Source of the DNA: Sarea resinae
Taxonomy: Eukaryota
Reading direction: 5' to 3'
Length of the DNA stretch: 64,000 nucleotides
NCBI GenBank assembly: GCA_026026165.1
Contig: JAPEUD010000001.1
Span: forward strand, 124,001-188,000
In this document: positions 10,618-22,832 of the stretch, piece by piece
Layout of the letters: the number at the start of each line of letters is the position of its first letter
Numbering within the stretch: position 1 is the stretch's first letter
Program-made: the position numbers and the translations under genes
The notes under the pieces: model-generated
The model's database searches: none
What the model was told of the DNA's origin: nothing
What the model saw: only the letters and a program-made list of their open reading frames with translations

Positions 10618-11809
10618 TTTGGCGTTCTAGCAATATTCGAGGTTTTTTGGCAGCATAGAGGCGCGTTCTGCTCCATTTCGTATCATCATTTTCCTTCTTC
10701 GACCTATCTCCCTTAGCAGCAACATAGTACAAAACTGGATACACTCTCATCGGTGTCATCGGAAAATTTCTATTACCCTCCTAACATCACTTTGCTAACT
10801 GGCATCGTGCTTGACTTCTCTTCGATCAGCTTCGCTTCTGCAAATTCCTCACCTGAGATTTTCTCAAGTGATACTCACCTGCTGTTCTCTCATCTACAAG
10901 CTAACCACCTCCTGGTCGGCCGTTCAACAAGTTTTCGCCTCACTCCTGTCACCTCCCCATTGTGGACTTGCTCGACAGATGAGATTGTCCATCACGCTCA
11001 TGCCAACAGTCAGCTTCCTGAAGGAAAACATTTGCTGCCTCTAGACTTCCAAGACCACAACTTCCACTTGAGGCACTTTACCCCCAGTCACCAATCCTTT
11101 CCTTGAGGCTCACTGTCAACTTCACTTCTTCGGCAGTTCTCAGTCCATCTACTCTCTAATTATCATATCCAACAAACCTTGAGCCAGCCGTCAAATCAAA
11201 TCGAGTCATCACTTAGGAGGTCAAGACCTCAGCATCAGAGGAGGAAGTAGTCATTGCTGGTGGAAAGTAAACCGTATGCTTGTTCCTGATTTTACTTGGC
11301 ATCTTCTCTCGTTTCTATCAACTCAACAGATCCGATCTTCCTGCTTGATCTGGCTAACGTTCAGTCAATGGTACCTCAAGCAACTCTTGACCAATATTCA
11401 CAGGATCGTGACTTGGCGTCCCCGTTTCAACCGTTAATTCGCTTGATTCACACAATTACGATCTATCAGGTATCCTTCGATCAGCAGTAGACGGCTGTTT
11501 TTGGCATCACTCTTCGATACCGAGATTTGTGGACTTTATCAGCCCAGGCATCAAACACCCTTCGATCTCTATCACATTTCATCACTTTCTTGTCGTTTTG
11601 GCGCCGAGATAGTTCTCTCTCTCGATGGGCCTTTGCGAAATCGTCTCTTTCATCGACAAAGGCGTGCTTGCATAGTACGCAACTGATCTGAAGATTCTCT
11701 CTGGTTCTCATCTACTGATAATTGCACTGATACCTTCAGAAGGTAAGGTCCATTCCATTTTCTTACCTTGGTGCGTAGATGCTGATATGCTGTCAGCCAA
11801 TTCACCAGC

Positions 11810-13690
11810 ATGGACTCTGCCCCTCATTCATCTAGCCCCCATGTAGCGAAAAAATCAATGCTGACTGATTGGGCGGATTGGCCTCTTTGGGAAGAAGAGA
11901 TCGCAATCTCAAAATCGCACCCCCCTCCTCCTAACGTTCGTCTGAGTGACTACAACGTTGCTCGCGTCATTGAATCAGACATAACGGTCAAATATCGCAG
12001 TCATTGCTGGTCGGCCGATTTCACCAAGAGTGGCAATATTCGTGCTACCCGTATTTCTCAAGGGAAGCCGGCAAAGGTCTGGGTGCCTTCTAAAAACGTC
12101 TCTACCGGTGGGAAGTGGCACTATAAAGTGTTCAAGCATTACTACGTACTTCACGGGAACGAAGGAGAAGGCCGTCCTTGTCTAGGAGACCCCATCGCCG
12201 GAGGAACGACACCGTTCATCTCTTACTCTTCCAACATTGCTGTTGTTCAAGAGCCACCGCCAGCGAATCTGCCACCCACGACTCCGACGCACAATAAACG
12301 AGCCAGGGCACCATCCGAAAAAAGCTTCAAAGCACCGGTTGTCCCGAACATGGAACGCAGCCTTTTTCTGGAGGACGAGCACGCCGGACTAGATATAGGC
12401 CGCCGACAGGTGGACACCTTTCCAAATCAGCCGGTCAATCCCTCGGGACATCAGAGCTACGAAACACAGAGCAATAAACGCTCCTTTCCATCTGACCAGG
12501 TCGAAGGTAATAGGCAAGTGATGCGCCGAAAGGTCGATGCCTCGGCAAACAGACAGATCCCAAATTTTGGTGTCCAGAATCGTACAACTATCGACGATTC
12601 TATGGGCGCTCCGTCTGGTTTCGGACAAAATACTCCTCACATTGACAAAGATTCTTCCCAAGGCATTAGACCAGCGGAATCGGTAGCTCCGAAGCAGGGT
12701 GGCGAGGGAATACGTCCTGCTCAACCCTTTCTCTCCGATTGGGCAGCTCGCCGCCTCGCTGGATATGGTACTCATTACGCTCTCCCTCCTCAACGTCCAA
12801 GAGAGCCGTCTGATTCCGCGCGCGCCAACAAGATTCGAGATGCTGCTTTGGAATCGTTCAAGGACGTTTTTGAAGCGGAGGGGGATCTAGCAAGTCGTCT
12901 GGAGCAGTTGGAAAATGGTATCGAGGGCGTTAGCAGCGCGCTCGGTCAGATCGGCGCTCACTTGGATGAGATGAAGAAGTATGCGAGAGAGACCAGAGCG
13001 GTCATTGGTCAGAGGATGTTGCTGGTGCCGGATGGATTTATCAATGGCCTATACGATAGCGGATTGCGGGGTGATGCTGGTCAAGCCAAGGAGACGCTGC
13101 AGCGCTGGGAGCCCGCGAGTGAGAAGACCATGGTAAACGAGGTGACTGCGGATGGTGATAGGGATGGTGGTGTTAGGAAAAGCTTGTCAGCAGGCAATCC
13201 AGGAAATGCTTTGAACAAAGGCTCGGGGTCTGTGCCTTATAACCGGAACTGGGATCTTAGTAACGGTGGGCACTCGGTCAATCAAATGAACTTCGCCACG
13301 GAAGACTGGGACCCTGCGCATGGGAACGGCAACTTGAATATGGCACCTGGCGGGCGAATGGACTATCCGGGGACTCCTCTTTTCAGCAGCCTTCAACCGG
13401 CGCCTGACAACCAAACCTCGGATGTGCAGCATGGCCAGCGCTTAGGGAACCACGAGAATCCAGCGATAGACTACGAGGCCCTTGCAGGTACGCACGAGGT
13501 CCGGAGCAACGAAGACTGGCATCCCATCAGCGAAGGTGGCAAGGACCCTACAAGTATGCATCAGGGCCACAGCAATGGAGAGGGGCATCCTATCAGCGAA
13601 GACGACGAGGTGTTAGGTATGAGCGCCGAGGAATTGCGGCATCTGCTGTTGGGCGAAGAGGTTGAGGGGACGCAGGTGAATGGTGACTAG
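11810..13690 (+). CDS. Hypothetical 626-aa protein, mostly disordered with a short coiled coil
   Basis: Long uninterrupted ATG-initiated ORF; likely 5'UTR intron at 11743-11796; no recognisable domain. Confidence 0.65.
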   Translation: MDSAPHSSSPHVAKKSMLTDWADWPLWEEEIAISKSHPPPPNVRLSDYNVARVIESDITVKYRSHCWSADFTKSGNIRATRISQGKPAKVWVPSKNVSTGGKWHYKVFKHYYVLHGNEGEGRPCLGDPIAGGTTPFISYSSNIAVVQEPPPANLPPTTPTHNKRARAPSEKSFKAPVVPNMERSLFLEDEHAGLDIGRRQVDTFPNQPVNPSGHQSYETQSNKRSFPSDQVEGNRQVMRRKVDASANRQIPNFGVQNRTTIDDSMGAPSGFGQNTPHIDKDSSQGIRPAESVAPKQGGEGIRPAQPFLSDWAARRLAGYGTHYALPPQRPREPSDSARANKIRDAALESFKDVFEAEGDLASRLEQLENGIEGVSSALGQIGAHLDEMKKYARETRAVIGQRMLLVPDGFINGLYDSGLRGDAGQAKETLQRWEPASEKTMVNEVTADGDRDGGVRKSLSAGNPGNALNKGSGSVPYNRNWDLSNGGHSVNQMNFATEDWDPAHGNGNLNMAPGGRMDYPGTPLFSSLQPAPDNQTSDVQHGQRLGNHENPAIDYEALAGTHEVRSNEDWHPISEGGKDPTSMHQGHSNGEGHPISEDDEVLGMSAEELRHLLLGEEVEGTQVNGD

Positions 13691-15453
13691 GAAGAGGCTA
13701 GGTTGGGAAGAAGATCGAAATTGGGATCATGATTTGAGGATTATCTACTATTCTCTTCCTAAGTGGTTGCGAGTTCATCATGGATTGGGGATGGTTCTCT
13801 TCTCGGGGAGCATCGCGCAAGAGGTGCTGAGTCGTCGTTGATTTGTCATTTCTTTTCACTTTTAGATACTCTTTCCATCGATGATTACCTTGGAAGAATA
13901 AAACAAAACCTTGAGATGATGTTGTGGAGAAGCGGAAAGTTGATTCAACATACTGACATCACTGCTCTTCCTATGATCTCGTATCGGATGATATTCCTGT
14001 TACAACTATCTCGCACACACCTGTCGCATTCAGAACAAGATGATGAGATTCAGAGATTTTGGGGATCTGATAAGCTACTGCTGATACAGAGACACAGCAG
14101 GCAGAACAAGGCCGGATGTGGAAAGAATGGCAGATGCATGGATTGCGGACCCGAGGTTTGATTTGGACTCTCGCTGACCAATCAGCAACGAGCCCGTCCG
14201 AGCGCCGGACATCTCATCTCGCCTAATATGCAATTGTGCCAGACGAGGCCACCATGCGACGACGCGACAAGAATGATCAATGTCCTCCTGGTCGCTGCAG
14301 ATTGCGAGAAGATGTTGGTGAGCATCTGAGAGTCAGACGGGTGAGGAGGATGCCGTCGGCGTCGTTGTCGGTCGTTGGATGGGTGTACCATGTGTGATGC
14401 ACGAGGTCATGATTATTGTTTTGATTCGGTCTGATAGAGTAGTCTATTTGTTTGCCGGGTGGGAAAGTCGCGTCGCTTTTTTCTCTTGTCGCCCCCTTTG
14501 CCTTTGGCGTGTCCCTGACACTACGACGAGGTACTCTACAGTAGTACGCTGTACTCTCAAAGACAGCGACGGACCGAGAGACCGTCGGACCCTAGGGGTC
14601 AAGCGTCCACTGCGCAGTCCGACCTCATGATATTGTTCAGTCTTCTTCAGTCTTCGCCTCACCAGAGCGACCATGGACGCGTCGAATCGAATCGGATCGA
14701 ATGTTGCATGCCTCATTACATAATCCCCCCGTGTATCTGTTTGATTGGCAAATCCACGATGGCCGTGGTTGTTGATATTGCCATTGGCCCTGGGTCCCTG
14801 ACTTACAGAGTAGTAGTACTCTACGTTGTACTCTTTCCTGCTACAGAGCACTGACGCTGACACTGACACTGACACACCGACACACCGACTGCACCCACAC
14901 ACCCACACACACCTCTTTGTCTCTGGAGCTCCCTTTTTTCCCTCCCGCAGCTTGAAGAGGTCAGCGGTACGGCCAGTGTACATTGACGACCACCTAATCT
15001 GCCGCCATAGACACGTCCCTCGTCTCTCCTGGGTCGTTCCACGTTCCACACCCTGACTCTGCCGGTACTTGCTACTTTCGCCCTCGACTCCGTAACATCC
15101 AGACCGTGTGCAACGCTCATCCATCGACGTCGATTCTCTTCCGACTGAGCCATCGATCCCAACACTGCGGATTCGGTCGTGGTGCTGCTTGGACACATCC
15201 TCGTTCGTCCATCGTCCATCCATCTCAGCATCGTCGGCTCCTTTGTACAGTATCAATAGCCCTGCCATGTCCTTCATTGACATTCCATGAGACCTTCCTT
15301 TTGTCATTATTCTTTTCGTCGTACGTGTCGTGTCCGGATCTCGACAGTGACGCAGATGGTCGATCCTCTGGAGCAGCCATTGACTTTTGCTCCAATTCAT
15401 CATTGGCAATCATAGAGCAAGCGGTTACTTGATCGCTTGCCAGGATCAACGAA

Positions 15454-18400
15454 GTGGAAGGTACGCTGCCTGCCCCCAACTGGCCGTGGCCCCAAGCTGA
15501 TCTTCATGTGACGATAGCCCAAAGCAACGTCGCGCCGTCGTGGTCTCAGTCTGCATCTCCTCCTTCGACTCCATTGCGCGAGGAAGAGCTTGGAGGCTTA
15601 AGCCGAAAGCCAGGAAAGGCCCGGGAGGTCGACGACTCCCCGACTGCCACCTTTCGAACCTCTCCACTCACAAAAGAAAGCTCCGGACGTATTTCACCTG
15701 GGCTGCCGCCGCTCCCGACGCTTCCAACCTTTGGTCACGGTGTTGAAATACCTTCGTCGCCACCAGACGACCAGCAGACCGATAGTACACATTATTACAC
15801 AGCCAGTTGGGGATCACCTTATCAGCGTCCGGCCCCTGGAACATCTACAGGCGCAAGTTTCCACCGCCATCGGACACTCGACGGTGAGTCTGGGGACGAA
15901 TCTCCATTCCTCAGTGTCCGGACCGATAATTCTCGCCATTCGGGATTGTCTTCTATTGACGCTCCAACGCCAACGAGGAGAGAGCGTCATCCTTCATCAG
16001 GTTTACCGCCATCCCTAGCAGCGGCTCTTTCGGGAAGCCTCGGTAAAGACTCCATTCGCGGTTTCACCGAAGATTGGATCCGACAATATCTTTCAGGCGA
16101 CCTCGATTCGGAGCGGAGGAATTGGTGGAGCGACGACTCAAGCAGCGAGACGATTTCATTGGGGGAAGGATCCGGCGGATCTGCCGACGAGACAGGAAAC
16201 GGGTGGCTGACAATAGACGGAGAAGACGGCAAGGAAGGATCTTCGCCATCGAGCCTGACGGATTTTGTAAAACGACGGGAAAGTGGACGGAAGAGGGCTA
16301 CCAAGGAAGGCGAGAGCACGAGGAGACACAGATCGAGGACGAGCAACGCGACTTTGAAGCCGGAAGATTTTCTGGATATCTTAGACCCATCGCGAAACAG
16401 CTCGACATTGACAGACAACATGTTAGCATCAAAGTACGCCGACCCTCCTTCCCTGCCCAAGGAGCAAGTAGAGGGTCCCCAGCGGCCAGCGCCGGCAGTT
16501 CAGCCAGCTACAAAGTCGCCGAATCCTACACCGGTTGCGGACAAGCCTCTACCGCCTCCTCCGCCGTCTGAGAGCCCGATTCCCATCATACGCGTGCCGG
16601 AGTCTACTTCGCCTGGAACAGAGACCCCCTCGTCCACCCCTAAGCCAAGCTCATCGCCAGTCTCAGCAGGGCATCTAGCGAGGAAGAAACTCACCTGGCG
16701 AGGAAGGGCCTGCGTCGTTGCTCTACCCATCGACATCCCGCGGGGACCGGGAACCTCCAGACCGCTGCCATTGACTCGATCCGAGGTTGATGCCCGATTG
16801 AAACAGTGGATGGCGGATGGCTATGATGTCGAAGGGTTTGGCCTCTCGAGAAAGTCCAAGAGCACAGAAGATGTAGCGAATGATGGGCAAAGCCGGCAGC
16901 TGTATCCCGACCCATCGGAAAGCAGAGCAGAGTGGGAAAGGGGTAGCTACCGGGTCAGCATTCCCGATCGAAGAGGTAAGAAGACTTTCGTACATGAGAT
17001 GCATTTTTCCGTTTCTGTGCTCACCACAAACTAGACTGGGAGGCCTATGTGAATCATCTGCAAGAAGAGAAACTCCGAGCCTTAGGGGTCAGCTTCGGTG
17101 ACGAAGAGGTTGCACCAACAGTCTCTCCGGCGCCTTCTTCGATGGGCCGTCAAGCTTCTTCACAATACCAGCCGCTGCCCTTTGCTTCTCCTCCACCTAC
17201 TTCATCCGCTGCAAGTAACCACAATATGCAGCTTGCGAATCCTTTCTCGCCTCCGTTTGTACCTGGAGCCTCTACGAATCCGAGCTCTCAGGTGGCCTCT
17301 ATCGCATCCCCAGCATCTTCACATGCGCAACCGCAAGGAGGCTTTCATGCGCCCAAGCAGTCCATCTCGTTTCCTAACGGCGAGCAGGCTTTTGCTTCAC
17401 CGTTCCAGTTTCCTCAGTCACAGCCGACTCCGCCAGTACAGGGTATGTGGTCACCACCTGGATACTTCAATCAGCATGTCGGCGCAAGAGGAGGATCACC
17501 AGCAATCTTGGGGAGTCTTGGAGCTGCCTTGTCGCCTGGTTCTCCGTTCAATCAGGACATGTCACAGCCCGACCTGCTCACTCACATGCGCCAACAACAG
17601 CAGCAGCTGCAGAACCAACTGCTCCTGCAGCAACAGCAACAGCAACAGATACTCAACGCTCAGCATTCTCCACACCTAGAAGAGCTCCAGGAGACCGAGG
17701 AGGAAGAAGCAAGTCCTAGTCCCGTTGAGGATCCGGCGCCCGACCAGCAACCAGAGTCTCAAGCCCAAGGTTCGACCGAGAAGTTTCAGCGCCACATTAG
17801 CGACGCTGAATATCATTTGGAAGAATCTATCGAGCGACAAATGGATGAGGACGATGAGAGGCTTGACACCAACCAGACCTCAACTTTCGATGCGTCCAAA
17901 TTTGGCCAATACGACGATGGCCCAGGAAATGATTCCTCCAAAGAACATCGAGGCCATCCAAGCATCGGCAGAAATGCAGAGCGACCGACGTACGAGGGCC
18001 TAGGCGACGAGTGGCCGAAAGACGAAGCACCAGCGTTTGCTCAAGAAGCTCCGGATAGATCAACAGAGCCGACACTGCATCATCCGCAACCCCACAATCG
18101 AGCCCATTCTCTGTCCAAGCAACGATACGACGGAGATACCATGTCAACTTCCGCCATGGCCATGCTCAATGCAGAGACGCCTTATGGCAACGGCTCAAGG
18201 CACATGCATGACGACCTCAGCGAAGGGGCCCGGACAAACCTTTCGGACACTGACACAAATCCTAGTGTGTCCGGAACTCCTGCTCGAATGTTCGAGAATG
18301 CCCACGGGCAAAATATGTCCATATCGGCAAATCCATGGCTAGATTCCAAGTCCACGCCCATAGATGGCAAGGCAAGGCCGTCTTTTCACCAGACTCCATC

Positions 18401-21400
18401 TGGTCACGGCTCAAGCGGCTCGGTGCCAAAGTTCAACGTTGAGGCCAAGGAATTCAAGTTCAATCCGGCGAGCTCGTTCACTCCAGGAAACTTTTCGTTT
18501 TCTGGAAACAACTTCCAACCAGCACAACCGGCCCACCCTGCTTTCACACCGCCTCATCACTCTACCACGGGCAGCCGTATCAGTAATGGTTCATTTGGGG
18601 GGATGAGCAGCTTCAATGTGGGCGCTCCTGCCTTCAAACCCGGTGCTGCCTTTCCGACTGGCGATTTCAGCTTCTCTTCATCCGGTCCAGCGTTCAAGCC
18701 AACTGCTCCTGGATTCTCGCCTTTGATAGGTGCGGCTACAGACCTGGGCAGTAGTATCGGTAGTCGCGCCGTAGACGCTCCGACTCCAGCAAGGAGAGAT
18801 CGTATATTCAGCCCTATGAACCTGGTCGATATTGTCAAGCCAACGAAAAAGTCCAAAGCCATTCCAATTGTCAGGCCTGACGAGATTCCTGGCGACGGTG
18901 GCTCAGGTGATGGTGAACTGGATGCCGATGGCCGTCTCACTCAGACTGACGCCCGGCTGAAGAGAGTTCGACATCAAGGTGGCGATGGGGATGAAGTTCC
19001 GCAATTTGCTGACGACTTTACGACGCAATTTGCCATTCCTACTCATCCACTCACCGAGACTGGACAATCTCAATCAGGCAACAAGGAGCCGCAAAGGTTT
19101 TCAAATTCATCTCTCGGCAAGGAAAATGCTGTCCCTCATGACCAAAGCGAGGGCATCGCTTCAGAGAGTGATGCAGTGCAACCTAAAGGGCAAGAAAGGT
19201 TCGCCATCAATGAGGCATCCGACAACGTCATCAAGGCAATAGAGGTGAAACCCTCTGCCCAAGCTTCGCCAAAAGCTCAATCGGAAGCAGAAGCGAGCCG
19301 CGATACCGATTCTGCGGCCTCTGTTCATGAGAATGATACCACCGCTAACAAGAAGCATCGTATGGCGGATTCACATTCGGAGACTCACAAGCAGAGCAAG
19401 AACAGTTCTTTGTCCGCCATGGCAAAACCGTTCGAGTTCAAGCACTCGGAACCAGCTTTCGACCCCACTTTCTCCAAGAAACCTTCTCCAGTTCCCAAAA
19501 CAAAGGGCTTGGACGGATCTCGGTTTGCTCATAGTCCTTCTCCTCCACCGCTACCCGGACAGACCTCATCGACCACTCTTCGGCCAAGCGAAGTCGGCTC
19601 CTTCCGAGACGATGTCTTTGAGCCGACCAAGGATGCGCCGCCTCTCGACAGCGAAGGGATCGACTATAGTTCCTTGATTCAGCCCTCTTATGATGAGATT
19701 GATGCGGTCATGAGACATCTCAATCAGGATGATTCTGACCTTGGCGTCGAGCGAAATGGTAGTCCATGGAGACGGTCAAGCCCCGTTCAAGCGCAGCTCC
19801 CGACCCTTGAGCGGCCCACATCAGCTCAGCAGCTTCCACTCGATCTCCACCCTCGCAGCGATGCTCCCAGCCCAAGCCCCGGTCGCTTCCAGCAGCAGTA
19901 TCAGTATCTTCCTAAGGAGTCTCGCGCTCTGGGCTCTCCCGCACCCGTCATCCGTCCACCAGGCTTCAAGCGTACCGGTATAGCCTATGATTCACCCATC
20001 CATAGACTGAACAGCCCCGGCGATGTTCCTGCGAGCGACTGGGATGACATGATTTCATCCGGCGAAGAAGCAAAATTACCGACGCGCAGCAAATTCTTCG
20101 ACAATCGTGTCGACAACATTGTTGACGGTCTTCTGCGACAACGTCTAGGTCCTTTGGAAGAGACTCTGAACGTCATCCAGAATTCTTTGACGAATCTGTC
20201 CGCGCGTCCCTTTAGTAGAAGGGATAGGAGAAGCGTATCTGCCGAGGTCGCCAACAGCGATGCTGATGATGAAGATGATATGGAAGAAGGCATCCCGCCC
20301 CGGTCTATATCTCCCAGGAAAGACCGGAAGATGGAGAAGATCAAAGCCGCCGTATACGAGGCGATGTCAGTCGTTCAGGCTGATAGGAATAATGTGGCCT
20401 CCCCAGTCGTGTGGTCCGACGTTCAACAAACTCTCCTGGAGATCAAATCATCTTTCGTTCAAGCAGCTCGCCCGGAGACTCAGATTGACGACATCAAGAC
20501 GGTCGTACAGGAAGCGATATCTCAGCAGATGCTTGCTCTTGAAAAGCCAAAGAAGAACATGACCCCAGAGGTCGAGCTCCGGCTTGCGGCTTTGGAGAGC
20601 ATGCTGAAAGAAGCGGACCTTCGTGCCGGAGAAGAGCTCATGGCCCGCAGAGCAGCCGAGGACAGGGCTGCTGAGACTCAGCGAAGACTTCAGATTGCCG
20701 AAGAGGAGGCATTTCGGCAGCGTGATCTTGCCGAAGAAAGTCAGCGAAAGCTTCGCGTCCTCGACGACAAGCGCCACCAAAGCCTCATGCAGACTCAGAT
20801 GCGGACGGCGTTGCTCGAAGGTGCTCAAGAGAGTCTACAGAAGTCAGTCTCGGATTTGAATGCCAAGAATGACGCTCTCGAGGAGACCATTGATGAGTAT
20901 CGGCTTTCAAGCGACAGGTGGCGGAGAGAGGTTGATGAAAAGAAGGAGGAGAATGGCTCTCTCAAGAGAACTATCGGTGCATTGAAAAGTCAGATGGAGG
21001 AAAGTATCAGAGTCCGGGAAAATATGCGCGGGAAATTTGACAGGTTACAGGAGGACATGGCTACGGCCACGCGCGATATTGCACGAGAGCAAGCCACCTG
21101 GCGCAAAAAGGACGAAGAGCACAAGGCAAAGCTGGAAATGACGCTTGCGAGACTTGAAGCCGAGGCCAGGACCCGAGAACGACTCGAGAGGGAACTCGAG
21201 AGACTCGAGAACCAAGAGCGGGAGGCCATGAAGATGAGAGTCGTCGTCGAGCAAACTCAGAACGCGAATTCCCGGCTGGAAGAAATGGTCAACAAGTTGC
21301 GAATGGAAAGTCTGGAGCATCAGAAGACCGCGGCGAGGTTCGAACGTGAGTTTGGCGAGGCTAGGGAAGCGGGACGAATGGAAATCCGGCGCACCAGGGT

Positions 21401-22832
21401 CCTCATGGAAGCCGATATCGAAGCGGCAAACAATCAAGTCAATATAGTTCGTGCCGATCTGGAGAGTGAGCTTGCACGGACGAGAAATGAGCTGGAGAAT
21501 GTGAAGCTGGATGCAGACACGGCCAAGGAAAAGAGCGAGCTCGAACTCGAGGAGGCAGCGGAGTCGAAGAAGGCTGCTTTGCGAGAGGCTTCCGAGTCGA
21601 AGAGGGTTGCTTTGCGAGAGGCATCCGAAGCTCGAGATGCAGCGGTGAAGGAGCAACACCGGAAGTATGAGCGTTATCTCGAAGAAATGAGGGCACAGCA
21701 TGATCGGGCTTTGCGCAATGCATTAGAAGACAAGCAGCGGGCAGAGACGCATCTTCTTGAACGGCTCAGTCTATCCGACGCCAAAGCCGAACATCTTCAA
21801 GATCGTGTTGCCCACTTGGCAGAAAAGCTCGAGATTGCAAAGTCTGCTGCACATGCTGCAGCGCAAGCTGCTCAGTCCGCACGGGTTGTATCCACGGCTT
21901 CGCCGTCCGTAGGGAGCTTGACTGCAGAGAGACGCTCTGACGAACCCGAGAGAATCTCGCCGCAAGCGCTTCGCGAGTCAATCATGGTGTTGCAAGAACA
22001 GTTGCAAGAGCGTGAAGGACGAATCGAGAAGCTCGAACAAGAGCTGTCAAACGCTGATACGGAGGCGCCGTCAAAGATCAAAGAGCGAGACAGCGAGATT
22101 GGCTGGCTTCGCGAGTTGCTCGGCGTGAGAATCGGTGATCTCGAAGATATCATCAAGACCCTATCTCAACCTAAATACGACCGAGATGCTGTCAAGGACG
22201 CTGCCATTAGGCTCAAAGCGAACTTGCAAATGGAGCAGCAGGAGAGAGAACGAGCAATGTCGGGATCGCAAGGATTCCCGTCACTCGGCAATCTAGCTAA
22301 TCTTGCCTCGCCCAAAGCGGTCTTGCCTCTGGCAGCAGCTTGGGGAAATTGGCGAAGAGGAAGGGACCGGTCTTTTGGCAACACATCTGACGCTGCTGCG
22401 AACAGCCCGACACCTTCCAAGCCCTCTCCATCAGCTCAGAGTTTCCTATCTGGTCTGATGACCCCGCCAAGCACCCATGTCCGGCAAACACCACAGGCTC
22501 CTAATACTGAGACTTTTACGGCGCGTCGGTCCGCGCCGGCTCCATTGGAGCTGACCAAGTCGAATTCGCAACCGTCACTATCGTCCCGGCAGAAGGAGAA
22601 GCAGCGCGCCCCATCTCCTCCTGCGCCTTCGACGCCTCCATTGCTCCGCAAGGGGTCTTATGACCAGGACGCCGAAGACAACTTCAGCACGAGTGGGTTC
22701 TACGACGATGATGACAGCACCGCCGACGGGCACGGCCACGGTATCGGAGAGGGCAATGAATTCAGTACCGAGAGCGACAGCCACGATCTTCATGCCGAAG
22801 CCGGCGACGAACTCTTCGCCCCGCTCGTCTAG
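15454..22832 (+). CDS. Large (~2,400 aa) conserved fungal coiled-coil protein (often auto-annotated 'myosin class II heavy chain-like'); start codon uncertain
   Basis: ORFs 15454-17034 and 17049-22832 are joined in frame by a phase-1 intron at 16976-17034 (G|GTAAG...CTAG|AC). PAM2-like FNVEAKEFKF/LSAMAKPFEF motifs; long heptad region from ~20.5 to 22.2 kb. First in-frame ATG only at 16420. Confidence 0.85.

Follow-up and report, generated by a model that had tools for sequence, protein, structure and literature searches.

A PxdA-type gene and its parts

The DNA analysed here is a stretch of 64,000 nucleotides (nt) from Sarea resinae (Eukaryota; NCBI GenBank assembly GCA_026026165.1, contig JAPEUD010000001.1, positions 124,001 to 188,000 of the forward strand), which we call, at its full length, the window and number from its first letter. 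Its plus strand carries a long gene of the PxdA family with a frame that is open from 15433 to 17034, directly behind an in-frame TGA at 15430-15432, and that reaches its first in-frame ATG at 16420. There is no AUG in that frame between the stop and 16420, and the 329 open codons that an original prediction, made from the sequence, had described ahead of this ATG are confirmed by reading the frame. A 59-nt intron at 16976-17034 links the upstream open frame to a 1,944-codon frame (16998-22832). We refer to the conserved coding sequence ahead of 16420 as the extension, and propose that it would be translated from a weak first start near the end of exon 1, the ATG at 16420 serving as a second start. 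The parts of the gene are listed in Table 1.

The 533-residue upstream frame matches 113 long fungal proteins (E<=1e-3), the best of them a deposited Sarea resinae protein (P0003; 2,435 amino acids) that is identical at all exon-encoded aligned residues. The window open reading frame (ORF) also matches P0055 from Aspergillus undulatus, which is 75% identical to AN1156.2 of Aspergillus nidulans FGSC A4 (2,236 amino acids) over 99% of its length. Direct comparison to AN1156 used the N-terminal part of the window protein, the rest being connected through P0055, and the extension alone (300 amino acids) aligns with residues 93-304 of A. nidulans PxdA at 34% identity (E=8e-28). Judged by these homologies, the gene is an ortholog of PxdA (AN1156), the endosome hitchhiking adaptor. 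The match of the extension to PxdA further indicates that the extension is real, conserved coding sequence, and together with the 113 relatives it bears out the earlier description of this segment as protein-like. The motifs HYYTASWGSPY, FTEDWIRQYL and RNWWSD singled out at that time are all present in the translation, and YYTASWGSPY, GFTEDWIRQYL and NWWSDDS are conserved.

In A. nidulans, AN1156 is pxdA, encoding a 2,236-amino-acid coiled-coil linker for peroxisome hitchhiking on early endosomes (PMC4748578; here and below, published work is cited from the available portions of each text), and its reference features are about 600 amino acids of C-terminal tandem coiled coils with large N-terminal and small C-terminal uncharacterised flanks. 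The window gene resembles it in family, in its similar length and in having a large uncharacterised N-terminal region followed by apparent C-terminal coiled coils; near the C-terminus of the translation we read, by eye, a long charged, heptad-like region. PxdA is also needed for the hitchhiking of SsdA messenger ribonucleoproteins (mRNPs) (preprint 10.64898/2026.04.14.718127). Its residues 1-816 are dispensable for peroxisome motility (PMC8101442), and since PxdA without these residues still supports motility, the function of the extension would lie elsewhere or be regulatory. No Pfam family was assigned to the window ORFs or P0003, with PF26916 (and PF07145 in a few relatives) appearing solely as precomputed labels, and an ESM Atlas feature search with the N-terminal 485 amino acids returned solely unnamed clusters, with scores below 0.9.

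The deposited gene model begins at ATG 14759 and runs from a donor GTCCCT at 14794 across a 650-nt intron to an acceptor at 15443, within an arm of the conserved leader hairpin described below. Its first-exon peptide was not seen at the N-termini of the relatives inspected, whose own gene models start with unrelated peptides, have truncated starts or are fused to the upstream gene. Mutually unrelated predicted N-termini are expected where software must invent a start, and from its sequence features the start at ATG 14759 looks like a predictor's rescue. An upstream ATG-bearing exon spliced in frame, one of the observations named as able to refute the original prediction, was encountered only in the form of this computational model with its poor donor, long intron and acceptor in the hairpin. 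The same model uses the 57-nt intron 1 that had been predicted at 15461-15517, and homologous in-frame introns of 48-70 nt are present in five other lineages. The ATGs upstream of the hairpin were correctly taken to give short or out-of-frame ORFs: the ORF from 15267 is 7 codons long, with a stop that shares the string ATGA with ATG 15287; that from 15287 has 42 out-of-frame codons, ends at TAG 15413-15415, 39 nt 5' of GTG 15454, and holds ATG 15356 in the same frame.

Table 1. Features of the PxdA-type gene in the window, with the basis on which each was placed.
Feature	Position	Strand	Basis
First exon of the deposited model, ATG 14759, 12 codons (doubtful)	14759..14793	+	start peptide of P0003 maps here
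Two overlapping candidate upstream ORFs	15267..15415	+	sequence
Conserved leader hairpin, arms 15417-15426 and 15431-15440	15417..15440	+	fold, alignment, covariance model
End of exon 1: GTG (15454-15456), GAA, G; proposed long-form start	15454..15460	+	shared motif
Intron 1, 57 nt, GTACGC...GCTGAT...TAG; includes ATG-TGA 15506-15511	15461..15517	+	skipped in deposited protein; homologous introns
ATG-free coding extension: 2 bases of junction codon and 300 codons	15518..16419	+	homology to PxdA 93-304
Conserved internal ATG, gacaacATGt, A at -3; proposed short-form start (2,117 amino acids)	16420..16422	+	alignment
Rest of exon 2	16423..16975	+	sequence, translation
Intron 2, 59 nt, GTAAGA...CTCAC...TAG	16976..17034	+	deposited protein joins ...IPDRR to DWEAY...
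Exon 3 to stop codon 22830-22832; disordered region with PAM2-like motifs and apparent C-terminal coiled-coil part	17035..22832	+	translation

An extension without ATG codons

The plus-strand ATGs near the site lie at 15267, 15287, 15356, 15506, 16420 and then 16790. As the original prediction had it, the ATG at 15506 reads ATG-TGA, and none follows in any frame from 15509 to 16419; the resulting gap of 914 nt (15506 to 16420) is the longest among the 1,066 plus-strand ATG gaps of the window, whose mean is 59.9 nt. The runner-up, at 508 nt (14759 to 15267), lies immediately 5' of the leader of the gene, and the minus-strand equivalent, the longest CAT gap in the window, is 623 nt. About 15 ATGs are expected in 911 nt from the density of the window, close to the 14 or so that had been supposed; a first-order Markov model fitted to the segment itself, which is 19% T, lowers this to 7.6 (Poisson P(0)=4.8e-4). 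Reshuffling of synonymous codons with the protein held fixed gives 4.9-7.0 expected out-of-frame ATGs and P(0)=2e-4 to 8e-4. There are no Met codons in the 300 codons of the extension vs 44 in the 2,117 codons of the downstream coding sequence, every 900-nt window of which has at least 7 ATGs (median 18). The lack of ATGs in the window exceeds what composition explains.

Orthologous DNA was collected by scanning metagenome contigs with the N-terminal alignment, which gave 77 loci (designated here by L numbers, and deposited proteins by P numbers); 27 were dropped as duplicates by a 120-residue key, leaving 50 distinct loci. Taxon labels of these metagenome loci, such as Helotiales-type, rest on resemblance to named proteins. 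ATGs were counted in 45 loci and the window, 46 in all, which fall into 13 clusters at 60% identity, over a region that opens no more than 60 codons ahead of the YYTASWGSPY motif and closes at the conserved Met. L026, L057, L060 and L073 (no Met after the motif in the ORF), L006 (first Met less than 100 codons after the motif) and L038 (no motif) were left out of the counts. An equal length directly after the conserved Met served as the control in 33 loci.

The ATG desert is a family trait and not a quirk of the window. In-frame Met codons number 0 in 11,031 codons of the extension in the 46 loci, vs 161 in 7,906 codons of the control. Out of frame, the extension has 15 ATGs against 142.5 expected by synonymous shuffling, whereas the control shows no depletion (221 observed, 196.9 expected), and in 35 of the 46 loci the extension is free of ATG in all frames. 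The absence of ATGs that the original prediction expected an ortholog alignment to show holds, at this level, in all three frames. The proteins give the same picture: in the alignment of the 113 relatives the 250-320 residues before the conserved Met are mostly Met-free, and A. nidulans PxdA has M1, its next Met at residue 318, and frequent Mets thereafter. We also note that an Aspergillus-type subset (P0144-P0167 and others, and locus L006) has an in-frame Met about 39 residues after YYTASWGSPY, which may represent a third start or a lineage-specific change.

Start contexts, donor motif and leader hairpin

The Met of 16420 aligns with a Met kept almost everywhere in the 113 relatives, in a local sequence of the type 'NM-LASKY' or 'GKM-MASRY'. 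Across the 46 loci the base at -3 of this conserved second AUG is A in 34, G in 8 and T in 4; among later in-frame Met codons of the same genes A stands at -3 in 125 of 583 (21%). The proposal that 16420 acts as a start thus agrees with both its conservation and its strong context, the window having A at -3.

The first start has the opposite character. In 17 distinct loci, all Dothideomycete-type, an AUG (AUG1) stands right after an in-frame stop, or after TGG in L069, with U at -3 in all 17 and C at +4 in 15. In 16 of them the in-frame TGA directly 5' of AUG1 lies inside the nearly invariant TTGAATGCAAGCTCGACG, about 20 nt conserved at the nucleotide level in L002, L024 and L042-L074. No in-frame ATG is found between the upstream stop and the YYTASWGSPY motif in 28 of the 50 distinct loci, and in L066 and L077 the only one lies within the apparent intron 1, so that about half of the distinct loci, the window included, are without an upstream in-frame ATG. 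The textbook signature of leaky scanning to a second in-frame start is this combination of a weak start, a track free of AUG and then a strong start.

Seven lineages share the motif R-nn-[G/C]TG-GAAG at the very end of exon 1, abutting the donor GT: the window, L001, L003, the group L018/L019/L021, the pair L002/L024, L066 and L077, the last with CTG. They fall in separate clusters below 60% identity in the extension; all seven have a purine at -3 and G at +4 of the [G/C]TG triplet (NTG below), and in none is an in-frame ATG met between the motif and the upstream stop. In the window the triplet is GTG 15454, with G at -3, G at +4, its donor at 15461 and the in-frame TGA, which spans the hairpin loop and the first bases of the 3' arm, 7 codons upstream. 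This is the codon that had been put forward as a near-cognate start in favourable context, and its place in a motif common to seven divergent lineages strengthens that choice. A canonical phase-1 intron of 48-70 nt follows the motif in the six lineages tested, and in each of them the NTG is in frame with exon 2 once the intron is removed; the length of intron 1 is not a multiple of three in four of these six. The two codons before the NTG are unconserved, which fits a coding start at the NTG. The motif was not found in Eurotiales-type loci or in most Dothideomycete-type loci. L002 and L024 carry both AUG1 and, 55 nt upstream, the GTGGAAG form of the motif at its donor GT with the hairpin, and may be intermediate between the two start types.

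An ATG is present in the 3' part of intron 1 in five of the six lineages inspected (the window, L001, L003, L066 and L077), reading AUG-UGA in the window; in L077 it would be in frame upon retention. With an ATG inside intron 1, retention of the intron would alter start-site choice.

A hairpin lies 13-16 nt upstream of the NTG in six of the seven motif lineages, 13 nt before GTG in the window, and was not detected in the L018 group with a covariance model. In the window, folding of the 62 nt that precede the donor gives -15.6 kcal/mol. Across 20 aligned loci, paired cells make up 85.5%, vs 74.0% in shuffles (none of 500 reach the observed value) and at most 47.2% with slid partners, and the three core pairs alternate between A-U and G-C with both bases changed. 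The covariance model matches the 64-kb window once, at 15395-15466 (49 bits, E=9e-11), and, beyond the loci from which it was built, also recovers L053, L026, L014 and two duplicates; the L018 group, Eurotiales-type loci and most Dothideomycete-type loci gave no match. We considered, and rejected, as a conserved feature an upstream ORF that terminates at the hairpin, since among 21 element-bearing loci only the window and L001 have one.

A near-cognate start near a stable RNA hairpin is also the configuration of START, in which a hairpin about 14 nt downstream of the near-cognate boosts initiation (PMC11165317); unlike the one in START, the PxdA hairpin precedes the candidate start. In the spliced sequence, the 60 nt that follow the NTG are less stable than shuffles in the window, L001 and L003, about equal to them in L066, slightly more stable in L077 and clearly more stable in L018. 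With the hairpin upstream and no stable structure downstream, structure-assisted initiation of the START type is not supported.

Helotiales-type loci have the homologous hairpin in an extended form of about 17 bp, with 5-7 nt between its end and the donor. An in-frame CTG in the hairpin arm was tried as the start of these loci and dropped on account of five exceptions: L023 (one extra base), L030, and L034, L036 and L047 (an in-frame TGA just before the donor). With no consistent in-frame near-cognate in exon 1, initiation in Helotiales-type loci may lie elsewhere. The opening codons of their exon 2 (L009-L055), ACA ACG TCT TCA TTG, are conserved even synonymously; the second codon is always ACG or ATT, a near-cognate with A at -3, and the sequence suggests that the start there may be this codon. 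A similar string, CAAAGCAACGTC, is present in the window in a different frame.

A proposed two-start mRNA, its alternatives and its setting

The explanation that we favour, if by a modest degree of confidence, is that one PxdA mRNA has two in-frame starts about 0.9 kb apart. The mRNA would begin not far upstream of the hairpin, and the 57-nt intron 1 would be spliced out. The first start would be deliberately weak: a non-AUG codon, with GUG 15454 as the likeliest, standing 7 nt ahead of the donor of exon 1. Initiation at this GUG by a minority of the scanning 43S complexes would give a long PxdA of about 2,420 amino acids, made of three junction codons, the 300 extension codons and the 2,117-amino-acid core; most ribosomes would pass the GUG, scan the AUG-free track and start at AUG 16420, giving a short form of 2,117 amino acids without the conserved N-terminal 300 or so residues. 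Evolution would have exchanged a near-cognate in the best context for an AUG in the worst, or the reverse, with the first start kept inefficient either way. Removal of intron 1, use of the GUG as a start, leaky scanning, the two isoforms with their ratio and any role of the hairpin are what we infer here. That the PxdA family has a conserved two-start arrangement we regard as probable; that GUG 15454 is the first start of the window is somewhat better than an even call.

Several observations weigh against parts of this explanation. The desert has exceptions, with one to three out-of-frame ATGs remaining in the extension in 7 of the 13 clusters; several of these arise from the conserved motif's own codons, and most have a pyrimidine at -3. 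In 32 of 172 motif-bearing orthologs, mostly Aspergillus, an in-frame Met follows 36-99 residues past the motif. The start codon is not pinned, ATC 15445 and AGG 15442 being also in frame in exon 1, and the CTG of L077 is weak proof since any first-base change of an NTG yields a near-cognate. In Helotiales-type loci the in-frame exon 1 CTG in the hairpin arm is present in 8 of 13. The base-pair switches in the hairpin occur mostly between two clades and so represent few independent covariation events. The text of the PxdA paper reports one band of about 250 kD, fitting the larger predicted ORF (PMC4748578). Finally, a transcription start lying upstream of 15267-15356 would put three AUGs ahead of the GUG, and simple leaky scanning would then explain only part of the outcome.

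The long form could alternatively come from a normal AUG on a spliced upstream exon, the desert then marking only leaky scanning from that AUG. One variant is the ATG 14759 of the public gene model, with its 650-nt intron to 15443; another starts at ATG 15287 and joins a donor GTACGT at 15321 to the acceptor at 15517 (a 197-nt intron), GTACGT being a good donor and the join keeping the frame when read by eye. Some relatives do have an AUG a few codons before the conserved N-terminal peptide. Both variants, however, discard or cut the conserved hairpin and the donor motif of exon 1, the deposited one using the donor GTCCCT, an intron about ten times the homologous 48-70 nt and an acceptor in a hairpin arm; moreover, the seven motif lineages have no in-frame ATG between the stop and the motif, and the N-termini predicted for relatives either bear no relation to one another or come from fusion with the upstream gene. 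We consider an upstream AUG exon unlikely.

It is also possible that both forms are made by a route other than plain leaky scanning, namely reinitiation after the 15267/15287 ORFs, an alternative promoter, or retention of intron 1 exposing AUG-UGA 15506, with the hairpin acting at that step. The upstream ORFs end 39 nt ahead of the GTG, the stop of the first overlaps the start of the second as AUGA, and the ATG in the 3' part of intron 1 recurs in five of six lineages. Yet an upstream ORF ends at the hairpin in only two of 21 loci, the nearest upstream ATG in Helotiales-type loci is mostly 125-163 nt away and as far as 259 nt, and an alternative promoter leaves the lack of ATGs in three frames unexplained. 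We rate such a route as distinctly unlikely.

A third reading holds that only AUG 16420 is used, the open frame being the relic of a lost start or an untranslated, AUG-free scanned leader. The absence of an in-frame AUG upstream and the strong context at 16420 agree with it, and a long scanned 5' untranslated region would look AUG-free. It is hard to reconcile, however, with a frame open for 329 codons and recognisably related to PxdA, with retention of the three extension motifs, and with the many independent lineages lacking AUG1 that keep both frame and motifs where an untranslated leader would decay; use of AUG 16420 alone therefore appears improbable. That the ATG-free stretch is a by-product of composition with no function in start choice, as its Ser/Pro/Gly-rich, T-poor and disordered nature, the Met-poverty of disordered regions and the Markov expectation as low as 7.6 might suggest, is very improbable, since P(0) remains small with amino acids and codon usage fixed, the equally disordered region past the internal Met is undepleted in 33 loci, and the depletion recurs across clusters less than 60% identical in the extension.

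With the two-start mRNA as the preferred reading, its nearest precedent is cpc-1 of Neurospora crassa and its Pezizomycotina homologs, in which the main frame is likewise open 5' of the first AUG, the amino-acid sequence of the extension is conserved, conserved near-cognates have A/G at -3 and G at +4, and annotations disagree on the start; there the extension is about 180 amino acids long, and the leader, which exceeds 700 nt, holds regulatory upstream ORFs that the extension overlaps (Ivanov et al. 2017, PMC5487733). Unlike that of cpc-1, the PxdA extension is about 300 amino acids and AUG-free in all frames, a conserved hairpin precedes its candidate start, which is 7 nt away from a splice junction, and one large clade has a weak-context AUG in place of a near-cognate. 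The proposed non-AUG extension is of a kind already known from cpc-1; what is unusual here is the length of the AUG-free track and the depth of its conservation, a candidate start set against a splice junction, and a covarying leader hairpin.

Isoform pairs made by leaky scanning past an upstream near-cognate start include those of PTEN-L, FGF2, c-Myc and C/EBP, and a scanned distance of about 0.9 kb is at the long end for such pairs. C/EBP is mentioned in PMC5487733, and yeast Pif1 may belong with these cases. The arrangement proposed here has in common with such pairs one mRNA, a weak first start, a strong second AUG and products differing at the N-terminus, and differs from them in that the AUG-free state is conserved over several fungal classes, as the counts show.

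The available portions of PMC4748578, PMC8101442 and the preprint 10.64898/2026.04.14.718127 treat PxdA as a single 2,236-amino-acid product and do not describe a two-start layout; the word 'isoform' has 0 occurrences in the first two, and a literature search at title level turned up nothing on PxdA start sites. An A. nidulans phosphoproteome study mentions, in the portion available, 12 PxdA phosphosites as 'not shown', and one of its supplementary files has no AN1156/PxdA entry.

In filamentous fungi PxdA is the central adaptor through which organelles and mRNPs hitchhike on endosomes, and if the two-start arrangement is true, tagging and deletion experiments on PxdA need re-reading: N-terminal tags mark the long form only, the deletion of residues 1-816 takes away both starts, and the extension becomes a candidate module for cargo selection or regulation. 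For annotation, the case shows why predictors give the PxdA family unrelated N-termini, truncated starts and upstream fusions. For translation biology it offers a naturally replicated case in which a weak-context AUG and a strong-context near-cognate appear interchangeable before an AUG-free track of about 0.9 kb, the leader also carrying a conserved hairpin. More speculatively, and with doubt, we suggest an ancient Pezizomycotina-wide switch in which the covarying hairpin and a weak start at the first splice junction, either a near-cognate codon or an AUG with U at -3, would set the ratio of long to short isoform. The extension, with its invariant YYTASWGSPY and NWWSDD motifs, would distinguish the long form in cargo or in regulation (mRNP vs peroxisome hitchhiking, for instance). 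It would be a switch in which the identity of the start was swapped repeatedly and its weakness kept.

Other features of the locus deserve brief mention. The 508-nt ATG-free stretch 5' of the leader (14762-15266) has a CT-rich tract and a CACTGACA/CACACCGA repeat near 14850-14900, and may be a promoter or a long leader. Further upstream, the ORFs at 11786-13690 and 13763-14161 have no Pfam match. Several deposited ortholog models, of about 2,500 amino acids, have a GH17 glucanase (PF00332) fused upstream, the PF00332 label being attached to 4 of the 113 relatives from the window-ORF search and to 11 of the 120 listed in the search with P0055; given the two upstream ORFs without a Pfam match, synteny of a GH17 neighbour is not confirmed at this locus. 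Within the gene, the Pfam scan does not call PAM2, and PF07145 (PAM2) is a precomputed label on P0036, P0048, P0085, P0091, P0116 and P0133; PAM2-like motifs are seen in the disordered middle of the window protein (17035-22832), for example in the FNVEAKEFKFNP stretch.

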